DNA of 7,574 nucleotides from Escherichia coli (GTDB lineage Bacteria; Pseudomonadota; Gammaproteobacteria; Enterobacterales; Enterobacteriaceae): NCBI RefSeq assembly GCF_003334305.1, contig NZ_QOWS01000046.1. The stretch is one strand, 5' to 3'. Every line of letters begins with the position of its first letter. Position 1 is the stretch's first letter. The notes beneath the pieces are model-generated. The model was given only the letters and a program-made list of their open reading frames with translations. It made no database searches and was not told the DNA's origin. Positions 4,104-7,574 of this stretch are shown piece by piece. Both the position numbers and the translations under genes were made by a program.

Positions 4104-4919
4104 TTACCAGCCTTTAACAGCGCCGCCGTTAAACACTTTGTTTGCTGCTTCGTAAACTTCATCAGACTGATAAGCCTGGACGAATTTCTTCACGTTCTCG
4201 GCGTCTTTGTTATCTTCACGCGTTACGATCAGGTTTACGTACGGGGAGTCTTTATCTTCGACAAAGATACCGTCTTTCGCTGGAGTCAGGCCAATCTGGC
4301 TGGCATAGGTGGTATTGATAACTGCCAGAGCGATTTGCGCGTCGTCCAGAGATCGAGGCAGCTGCGGTGCTTCCAGCTCAACAATTTTCAGATTTTTTGG
4401 GTTCTCAACAACATCAAGAACGGTCGGCAGCAGGCCAACGCCATCTTTCAGTTTGATCAAGCCCACTTTTTGCAGCAGCAGCAGTGAACGACCAAGATTA
4501 GTTGGATCGTTTGGCACGGCAACCTGCGAACCATCCTGCAGTTCATCCAGTGATTTGATTTTCTTGGAGTAACCAGCAATCGGATAAACAAAAGTGTTGC
4601 CTACTGCGACCAGTTTGTAGCCACGATCTTTCAGTTGCTGATCAAGGTACGGTTTATGCTGGAAGGCGTTGGCGTCGATATCGCCTTTGCTCAATGCTTC
4701 GTTTGGCAGAACATAGTCGTTGAAGGTTACCAGCTCAACGTCCAGGCCATATTTGTCTTTCGCAACTTTCTGCGCGACTTCTGCTACCTGCTGTTCGGCA
4801 CCAACAATCACGCCGACTTTAATGTGGTTTGGATCTTTTTCATCCTGACCGCAGCCTACCAGTGCCAGTGATCCAATCAGGGCTCCCACTGCCGCAAAGG
4901 TTTTGAATTTGAACGCCAT
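4104..4919 (-). CDS. metQ: D-methionine ABC transporter substrate-binding lipoprotein MetQ (NlpA family), 271 aa
   Basis: ORF MAFKFKTFAAVGALIGSLALVGCGQDEK... with signal peptide and lipobox cysteine. Strong RBS AAGGAA upstream. Recognised as MetQ with matching length. Confidence 0.96.
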   Translation of the reverse strand: MAFKFKTFAAVGALIGSLALVGCGQDEKDPNHIKVGVIVGAEQQVAEVAQKVAKDKYGLDVELVTFNDYVLPNEALSKGDIDANAFQHKPYLDQQLKDRGYKLVAVGNTFVYPIAGYSKKIKSLDELQDGSQVAVPNDPTNLGRSLLLLQKVGLIKLKDGVGLLPTVLDVVENPKNLKIVELEAPQLPRSLDDAQIALAVINTTYASQIGLTPAKDGIFVEDKDSPYVNLIVTREDNKDAENVKKFVQAYQSDEVYEAANKVFNGGAVKGW

Positions 4920-4958: not shown

Positions 4959-5612
4959 TTACTTGCGAGTGACAGCCCGGACGATGCGGTCGCCTGCGAA
5001 CTGAATTAAATAAACCAGAATGACCAGCAATACCAGTACCGTATTCATCACCGTCGCGTTATAGCCGATGTAGCCATACTGATAGCCAATCTGACCTAAA
5101 CCACCGGCACCGACTGCACCACCCATCGCGGAATAACCGACCAGGGTAATCAGGGTGATAGTTGCCGCATTCACCAGACCCGGCAATGCTTCCGGTAACA
5201 GCACTTTACGGACGATCTGCATCGGCGTGGCACCCATTGCACGGGAAGCTTCAATTAACCCGGTTGGGATCTCCAGCAGAGCGTTCTCGACCATACGGGC
5301 AATAAACGGTGCTGCACCAACGGTTAACGGAACAATCGCTGCCTGCAAACCAATCGATGTACCGACAATAACGCGGGTAAACGGAATCATCCATACCAGC
5401 AAGATAATGAACGGGATGGAACGGAAAATGTTCACAATCGCAGAAACGGTACGATACAGCTTCGCGTTAGCAATAATTTGCCCCGGGCGCGTAACATAAA
5501 GCAGGACGCCGACCGGCAGACCAATCACAAAGCCAAAAAATCCGGATACGAAGGTCATTGCCAGCGTTTCCCATACGCCACGAACCAGCAACCACATCAT
5601 CGGCTCAGACAT
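4959..5612 (-). CDS. metI: D-methionine ABC transporter permease MetI, 217 aa
   Basis: Hydrophobic multi-[33 protein letters not shown]... Start ATG overlaps the metN stop by 8 nt. Recognised as MetI with matching length. Confidence 0.95.
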
Positions 5613-6636
5613 AACCCAGTACCTCTACTTTTACATGGTGTTCCTGCAGCCAGGCAATGGCGGCTTGCGTATCTTGTTGTGTGCCGTGCATTTCAGTCAG
5701 CATGATGCCGAACTTAACGCCACCGGCGTAATCCATCTGCGCGCTAATAATGTTGTTGTTGACGTTGAAACGACGCGCGGTTTCAGAAAGCAGCGGGGCA
5801 TCGACCGATTGACCGGTAAACTCCAGGCGCAACATCGGCACGCAGTCAGTAAATGGCTCCGCTTGCAGACGTTCCTGGTAATCTTCCGGGATATCCAGAT
5901 GCAGGGTCGACTGAATAAACTTCTGCGCCAGCGGCGTTTTCGGATGCGAGAACACTTCACTTACCGTGTCCTGCTCGATCAGTTCGCCATTGCTGATGAC
6001 CGCCACGCAATCACAAATACGCTTCACAACGTCCATTTCGTGGGTGATCAACAGAATCGTCAAACCCAGACGGCGGTTAATGTCTTTCAGCAGTTCGAGA
6101 ATAGAACGTGTCGTTGCCGGGTCCAGCGCGCTGGTGGCTTCATCACACAGCAATACTTTGGGATTGCTGGCTAATGCACGGGCAATCGCCACACGTTGTT
6201 TCTGCCCACCGGAAAGATTCGACGGGTAGCTATCATGCTTATCGCCAAGACCAACCAATGACAGCAATTCCGTCACGCGACGTTTGATCTCGTCTTTCGG
6301 TGTGTTGTCCAGCTCCAGCGGCAGAGCCACGTTGCCAAAAACAGTACGCGAAGAGAGCAGGTTAAAATGCTGGAAAATCATACCAATCTGGCGGCGAGCT
6401 TTGGTCAACTCGGATTCTGACAGCGTGGTCAGTTCCTGGCCATCGACCAGCACGCTACCCTCGGTTGGGCGCTCCAGCAGGTTTACACAACGTATAAGCG
6501 TACTCTTACCCGCGCCTGAGGCACCGATAACGCCATAAATTTGTCCAGCTGGCACATGCAGGCTGACGTTGTTCAACGCCTGGATGGTGCGGGTGCCCTG
6601 GTGGAACACTTTGGTGATATTCGAAAGTTTTATCAT
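5605..6636 (-). CDS. metN: D-methionine ABC transporter ATP-binding protein MetN, 343 aa
   Basis: Walker [13 protein letters not shown] signature LSGGQKQR, Walker [12 protein letters not shown], and a C-terminal regulatory extension. Recognised as MetN with matching length. Confidence 0.96.
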
Positions 6637-6710
6637 TGATTATTTATTATCGTCATTAAGTTAGTCGTGGCATTTCGAATGCCTGAAACGGGCAACGCCG
6701 TCAATGAAAT

Positions 6711-6742
6711 GGATGTTAAGGCATCCAGACGTCTAAATCAAT
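6711..6742. promoter_or_regulatory. MetJ operator (met box) region in the metN promoter
   Basis: Perfect met-box octamer AGACGTCT at 6727-6734, flanked in 8-bp register by degenerate copies (aggcatcc, 5/8; ggatgtta, 4/8). It lies about 90 nt upstream of the metN start codon. Confidence 0.55.
6713..6741 (-). promoter_or_regulatory. Candidate sigma70 promoter of metNIQ
   Basis: On the minus strand: -35 TTGATT (6736-6741), 17-bp spacer, -10 TAACAT (6713-6718). The perfect met box lies inside the spacer, consistent with repression by occlusion. Confidence 0.4.
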
Positions 6743-6823
6743 CAGGTTTATGCGAAGAGCACTTTCTTGCAGGTCGAAACATGCGATACTAGCGTCACAT
6801 GCCTTATTAAGGAGCTATAAAAG

Positions 6824-7396
6824 GTGGCGAAGAGCGTACCCGCAATTTTTCTTGACCGTGATGGCACCATTAATGTCGAGCACGGCTATGTCCATGAGAT
6901 CGACAACTTTGAATTTATCGACGGTGTTATTGACGCCATGCGCGAGCTAAAAAAAATGGGCTTTGCGCTGGTGGTAGTAACCAACCAGTCTGGCATTGCT
7001 CGCGGTAAATTTACTGAAGCGCAGTTTGAAACGCTGACCGAGTGGATGGACTGGTCGCTGGCGGACCGCGATGTCGATCTGGATGGCATCTATTATTGCC
7101 CGCATCATCCGCAGGGTAGTGTTGAAGAGTTTCGCCAGGTCTGCGACTGCCGCAAACCACATCCGGGGATGCTTTTGTCAGCACGCGATTATTTGCATAT
7201 TGATATGGCCGCTTCTTATATGGTGGGCGATAAATTAGAAGATATGCAGGCAGCGGCTGCGGCGAACGTGGGAACAAAAGTGCTGGTGCGTACGGGTAAA
7301 CCTATTACGCCTGAAGCAGAAAACGCGGCGGATTGGGTGTTAAATAGCCTGGCAGACCTGCCGCAAGCGATAAAAAAGCAGCAAAAACCGGCATAA
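6824..7396 (+). CDS. gmhB: D-glycero-beta-D-manno-heptose-1,7-bisphosphate 7-phosphatase GmhB (HAD superfamily), GTG start
   Basis: ORF (M)[24 protein letters not shown]... with HAD motif I DRDGT. RBS AGGAG at 6810-6814, 9 nt upstream of GTG at 6824. Stop TAA at 7394-7396. Recognised as GmhB/YaeD. Confidence 0.93.
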
Positions 7397-7439: not shown

Positions 7440-7476
7440 TTGTCTTCCTGAGACGACTCCCTATAATGCGCCTCCA
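7440..7476 (+). promoter_or_regulatory. rRNA operon P1 promoter (rrnH-type): -35, -10, GC-rich discriminator and start site
   Basis: -35 TTGTCT (7440-7445), 16-bp spacer, -10 TATAAT (7462-7467), discriminator GCGCCTCC, predicted +1 near 7476. Near-identical in layout to rrnB P1 (TTGTCA-16-TATAAT-GCGCC). Confidence 0.85.
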
Positions 7477-7549
7477 TCGACACGGCGGATGTGAATCACT
7501 TCACACAAACAGCCGGTTCGGTTGAAGAGAAAAATCCTGAAATTCAGGG

Positions 7550-7574
7550 TTGACTCTGAAAGAGGAAAGCGTAA
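7550..7574 (+). promoter_or_regulatory. rRNA operon P2 promoter, truncated by the window edge
   Basis: ttgactctgaaagaggaaagcgtaa: -35 TTGACT (7550-7555), 16-bp spacer, and the window ends on TAA, the first 3 nt of the expected -10 TAATAT. Lies about 75-100 nt downstream of P1, as in rrn operons. Confidence 0.7.

Follow-up and report, generated by a model that had tools for sequence, protein, structure and literature searches.

The 24 bases at 6711-6734, upstream of metN in this stretch of E. coli DNA, are the catalogued MetJ operator of metNIQ (metD). We consider it almost certain that the site works as three met boxes laid over a sigma-70 promoter, at which MetJ bound to S-adenosylmethionine (SAM) would block RNA polymerase, and that the divergent gmhB promoter is separate. 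The assignment draws together tandem contiguous boxes, their overlap with a methionine-transport promoter, occupancy by MetJ in vivo, derepression without MetJ, and conservation across the lineage. Nothing contradicts it. The operator is already published and its regulation is textbook material; the site has no novelty.

The window, by which we mean the whole 7,574-nt stretch of DNA that was analyzed, is by its sequence matches part of the E. coli chromosome, from a strain other than K-12. Of 5426 complete E. coli genomes, 5425 matched a 601-bp query around the site, strain A7 showing 100% identity to the window over the 601 bp, and the annotation of the matching region has metN, for a methionine ABC transporter ATPase, facing gmhB. 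When this annotation was mapped onto the window, the minus strand carried the coding sequence of metN, the ATPase of the methionine ABC importer (5605-6636), then metI (4959-5612) and metQ (4104-4919), with proS, tsaA, and rcsF listed upstream of metQ. On the plus strand, gmhB (6824-7396) is followed by rrnH. Coordinates of the metN (6636) and gmhB (6824) start codons confirmed that the intergenic region is 187 bp long, as the first-pass annotation had it, and that it also holds the divergent gmhB promoter. The offset between the window and K-12 (NC_000913) is 216009, and K-12-sized genomes match window positions 6703-6745 at 222712-222754. The window does not contain metJ, which is b3938 in E. 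coli K-12 and was present in 122 of 122 Enterobacterales in a published survey. At the end of the window (7440-7574, plus strand) lies the rrnH promoter region. Its P1 has a -35 TTGTCT at 7440-7445, a -10 TATAAT at 7462-7467, and a start at 7476, which the Cappable-seq supplement lists as 223485, all on the plus strand. Of P2, the window includes the -35 (TTGACT, 7550-7555, plus strand) and ends before the -10.

We located the metN promoter from published transcription start mapping. Table S1 of Kim et al. 2012 (PMC3415461) gives a single metN start at NC_000913 222714 on the minus strand, supported by 83 reads and preceding a 69-nt leader, and the upstream sequence given there is identical to the window. 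With the offset of 216009, this metNIQ start is the A at 6705 on the minus strand. The -10 hexamer TAACAT (6718..6713, minus strand; -13 to -8) is 7 nt upstream of this start, and the -35 hexamer TTGATT (6741..6736, minus strand; -36 to -31), which is conserved as TTGAYT in 21 Enterobacterales sequences, is separated from it by a 17-bp spacer (6735..6719), an arrangement that fits a sigma-70 promoter. The spacer contains the octamer AGACGTCT. The first-pass annotation had proposed both hexamers with the octamer between them and had named a mapped start that disagreed with its -10 as grounds for rejection; the mapped start agrees with it. The two hexamers have 8 of 12 consensus matches, which is below the 9/12 threshold of our consensus scan, so the scan did not report them. 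The scan offered instead ATGCCA-N16-GATAAT (6673..6646, minus strand) as an alternative metN promoter, a candidate that we rejected, since it would give a 3-nt leader and the sole mapped start of metN is the one at 6705. In Klebsiella pneumoniae, a start has been mapped separately for the metN promoter (KPN_00213). This promoter agrees with the window at every base from GATTGATTT at the -35, over all three boxes, as far as the start, and its leader is of similar length (71 nt compared with 69 nt in E. coli); the sequence upstream of the -35 diverges (PMC3415461).

The metN leader has a conserved block, GGCATTCGAAATGCCACGACTAAC (6660-6683, minus strand), which reads 'GAAAATGCCACGGCTAAC' in 11 related genera and can form a small hairpin of 4-6 bp. 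This block showed no covariation, a fold z of -0.22, and no Rfam match, and on the same grounds we dropped the idea that the leader or the intergenic region holds an RNA element, the Rfam search having given no match at E ≤ 1. There was no obvious Shine-Dalgarno sequence for metN within 6637-6660 (minus strand). The 20 nt preceding the metN ATG are A/T-rich (GACGATAATAAATAATCA), and 'CGATAATAAATAA' is kept across enteric genera.

On the minus strand, 6734..6711 reads as three contiguous met boxes, AGACGTCT GGATGCCT TAACATCC, in register and without spacers, which together cover -29 to -6 of the metN promoter. Box 1 (6727..6734; -29 to -22 from the metN start) lies within the promoter spacer and matches the consensus at 8 of 8 positions, as the first-pass annotation had noted for this octamer. 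Box 2 (6719..6726; -21 to -14) matches at 5 of 8 and box 3 (6711..6718; -13 to -6), which contains the -10 hexamer, at 4 of 8; all three belong to the published operator. To score them, we used a symmetrized leave-one-out weight matrix made from 26 published E. coli K-12 boxes of other operators, with metN excluded. The array at 6711-6734 reached 11.7 + 4.1 + 4.1 = 19.8 bits and was the best three-box array of the window; the next unrelated site in the window had 4.3 bits. The weight-matrix scoring that the first-pass annotation had proposed as a check thus came out in its favor. Its further remark that the octamer has degenerate tandem neighbors held on the low-coordinate side, where boxes 2 and 3 contribute 4.1 bits each, and failed on the other side, where a possible fourth box at 6735-6742 scored -5.3 bits and the octamer is the -35 region. 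Hence, the operator extends over three boxes, 6711-6734, and not four. A terminator-like hairpin at 6727..6710 (minus strand) was also discarded; it reflects the palindromy of the adjacent met boxes and lies upstream of the metN start. Box 1 contains an AatII site.

The site coincides with a published one. Table S1 of Augustus & Spicer 2011 (BMC Genomics 12:558, PMC3228920) assigns to b0199 metN three boxes with 20.45 bits, 'agacgtctggatgccttaacatcc', separated from the start codon by 74 bases. This 24-mer equals window 6734..6711 on the minus strand exactly, and the distance is the same (6711 - 6636 - 1 = 74), so that for this entry there is no difference between the window and the operator of E. 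coli K-12 metNIQ (metD, b0199-b0197) in its 24 bases or its position. Among the K-12 operators in that passage of Augustus & Spicer, a perfect 8/8 box occurs at metN alone.

Published data also place MetJ at this operator in cells and document its effect. A MetJ ChIP-exo study of cells in methionine-supplemented medium (5 mM methionine; Sastry et al. 2019, PMC6892915) reports peak MetJ-3 at 222715, which corresponds to window 6706, between gmhB and metNIQ. With an intensity of 11, this is the weakest peak that they tabulate, and the coordinate given for it falls 5 bp outside the boxes. A lacZ fusion with 400 bp from upstream of E. coli metN had a repression ratio (wild type/metJ deletion) of 0.05, corresponding to 20-fold repression, with negative controls at about 1. 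When metJ was deleted, RNA-seq showed log2 fold changes of 3.98 (metN), 3.80 (metI), and 3.61 (metQ); derepression of metN in a metJ-deletion mutant has been put at about 14-fold. All three transporter genes are members of the 17-gene MetJ i-modulon. The site, the transcription start, MetJ occupancy in vivo, and a MetJ-dependent repression of about 14- to 20-fold are therefore matters of data, and the repression of the transporter by MetJ that the first-pass annotation had anticipated from the promoter geometry is borne out.

We analyzed the conservation of the site in 80 metN loci fetched from other species, with an alignment of 21 Enterobacterales upstream regions. The three-box array was present in 21 of 21 Enterobacterales loci, with scores of 17.0-22.5 bits and 61-103 bases ahead of the start codon. 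In these 21 sequences the phylogenetic footprint is sharp: the majority-base frequency is 0.99 in box 3 with the -10, 0.96 in box 1, 0.94 in the -35, and 0.86 in box 2, compared with flanks at 0.61 (the leader) and 0.53 (the stretch separating the metN promoter from that of gmhB). Seven of 8 columns are invariant in box 1 and likewise in box 3, and box 2 reads RGAYRCCY across genera. The near invariance of box 3 is explained by its double role as met box and -10 hexamer. Among 5426 complete E. coli genomes, 5350 carry the promoter/operator segment of 43 bp (6703-6745) unchanged and 75 have one mismatch in it. The variant inspected from these 75 is E. coli strain 130 (locus L082), in which a C>T change at 6726 turns box 2 from GGATGCCT into AGATGCCT, closer to the consensus; this strain also has a T>C change at 6674, in the leader hairpin. 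Outside the Enterobacterales, strong met boxes occur upstream of metN in different contexts in Vibrionaceae, Aeromonas, Pasteurellaceae, Orbaceae, and Psychromonas. No met boxes were found upstream of metN in the Bacteroidota, Halomonas, and Endozoicomonas loci, where the best scores were at most 4 bits. Their absence there agrees with published BLAST surveys, in which MetJ was found in five gammaproteobacterial orders only. The MetN relatives in Bacteroidota (73% in Pedobacter caeni, 64-65% in Flavobacterium) are nearer to E. coli MetN than are those of Halomonas (55-59%), a likeness that hints at horizontal transfer.

Could the resemblance to a met box be accidental? A perfect octamer alone says little, since AGACGTCT, which has a single copy in the window (6727-6734), turned up somewhere in 20 of 200 and 137 of 2000 dinucleotide-shuffled windows (7-10%); the lone octamer is not beyond chance. 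The tandem array is. Its score of 19.8 bits was reached in 2 of 2000 window shuffles and in none of 5000 intergenic shuffles, and the promoter position, the conservation across genera, the ChIP-exo peak, and the metJ-mutant data all oppose a functionless chance palindrome, a reading that is already refuted and to which we give next to no probability. Slightly less remote, and still very improbable, is the explanation that the block is conserved merely as a promoter, its likeness to met boxes being incidental and the control of metNIQ by MetJ indirect. Part of the conservation must indeed stem from polymerase contacts, since box 3 is the -10 and the octamer beside box 1 is the -35. However, promoter spacers are normally not constrained in sequence, and box 1 is in the spacer and almost invariant. 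Moreover, Vibrio, Aeromonas, and Pasteurellaceae have strong met boxes although their flanking sequences and the spacing to the start codon differ, the boxes are missing from lineages where surveys in the literature detected no MetJ, and ChIP-exo places MetJ here in vivo.

A different question is whether MetJ at 6711-6734 also controls gmhB, through promoter interference, relief of polymerase competition, or blocking of a transcript. The main plus-strand start in the region, at 222806 (score 31.4) in the Cappable-seq data of Ettwiller et al. 2016 (PMC4782308), puts the gmhB transcription start at 6797 (plus strand). Six nucleotides upstream of it is an extended -10, TGcGATACT (6782..6790, plus strand; TG at 6782-6783, GATACT at 6785-6790), which is conserved to at least 90% at 7 of its 9 columns across the 21 sequences and stands out as a second island of conservation between the two genes. 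The metN and gmhB starts are 92 bp apart, so that back-to-back polymerase footprints would abut, and the ChIP-exo table names gmhB as the plus-strand neighbor of the MetJ-3 peak. Cappable-seq also has a weak start at 222667 on the plus strand (window 6658; score 2.0), from which transcription would read through the boxes. The divergent pairing of gmhB and metN is kept in 34 loci from several orders, and at metE/metR shared met boxes do control both genes. Against this, the boxes are at -86 to -63 of the gmhB start, outside the gmhB core promoter. Furthermore, gmhB is neither among the 17 genes of the MetJ i-modulon nor in the table of 38 genes whose expression shifted by 5.7-fold or more on deletion of metJ. 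Its expression did not follow that of metN over a metN range of 3.9 log2 units (about 15-fold) in 49 of the 278 PRECISE samples (r = -0.15, p = 0.31, slope -0.045 ± 0.044), while in the same samples metN tracked metI (r = 0.93) and metQ (r = 0.89). Thus, the response of both divergent genes that would mark a bidirectional shared operator was not seen in these data, and the suggestion in the first-pass annotation that MetJ occupancy could affect both genes was not upheld. The gmhB promoter is separate and appears unaffected by MetJ, the available data excluding large effects only; control of gmhB from this operator is very improbable.

Related systems offer both kinds of outcome. In E. coli metC/exbB, a MetJ operator in a divergent intergenic region serves metC and exbB is unregulated in vivo, which provides a documented precedent for an unregulated neighbor on the same operator fragment, as seen for gmhB. 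The metC operator consists of two boxes (agacatccagacgtat) at a distance of 18 bases from the start codon, compared with three boxes at metN. Tandem met boxes likewise lie between the divergent genes of metE/metR and metJ/metBL; there, both genes are in the regulon and share the boxes, whereas at metN/gmhB only metNIQ responds.

The weak plus-strand start at 6658 lies within the region of the metN start and leader. It is antisense to metN, points through the met boxes toward gmhB, and fits a promoter-like site from the scan, TCGAAA-N18-TATTAT (6621-6650, plus strand). The 34 fetched loci in which gmhB is the divergent neighbor of metN (among L002-L037 and L051) comprise all 21 of the Enterobacterales as well as loci from Vibrionaceae, Pasteurellaceae, and Orbaceae. 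Judged by these loci, the pairing is unusually deep. In many of them a contig edge comes just past gmhB, in keeping with a possible rRNA operon at that place.

MetJ is a ribbon-helix-helix repressor that binds as one dimer per box, with cooperation between adjacent dimers. On this general biochemistry, we envisage that plentiful methionine would lead to plentiful SAM and that SAM-bound MetJ dimers would then occupy the metN boxes, presumably one on each. Binding would probably be nucleated at the perfect box beside the -35, because neighboring dimers cooperate, and cooperative dimer-dimer contacts could spread MetJ over boxes 2 and 3, both weak, and so onto the -10 hexamer that box 3 contains. 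RNA polymerase would be sterically excluded as a result, and synthesis of the methionine importer would be turned off. The dependence of binding on SAM at the metN operator is expected by analogy with established MetJ biochemistry; the published metJ-deletion RNA-seq work summarizes SAM in general terms as the co-repressor of MetJ.

Overall, a reading made from the sequence alone placed the repressor site, the -35, and the -10 correctly to the base, and it added no new biology. The product of gmhB makes a heptose precursor of LPS. There is a very small chance that MetJ subtly tunes gmhB, either as a roadblock to the plus-strand transcript from 6658 or by altering polymerase competition between the promoters 92 bp apart; if true, such tuning might explain why the gmhB-metN pairing was kept from Enterobacterales to Vibrionaceae and Pasteurellaceae. 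For metNIQ itself, the operator provides a compact worked example of two overlapping codes: box 3 doubles as the -10 hexamer and hardly varies among Enterobacterales.
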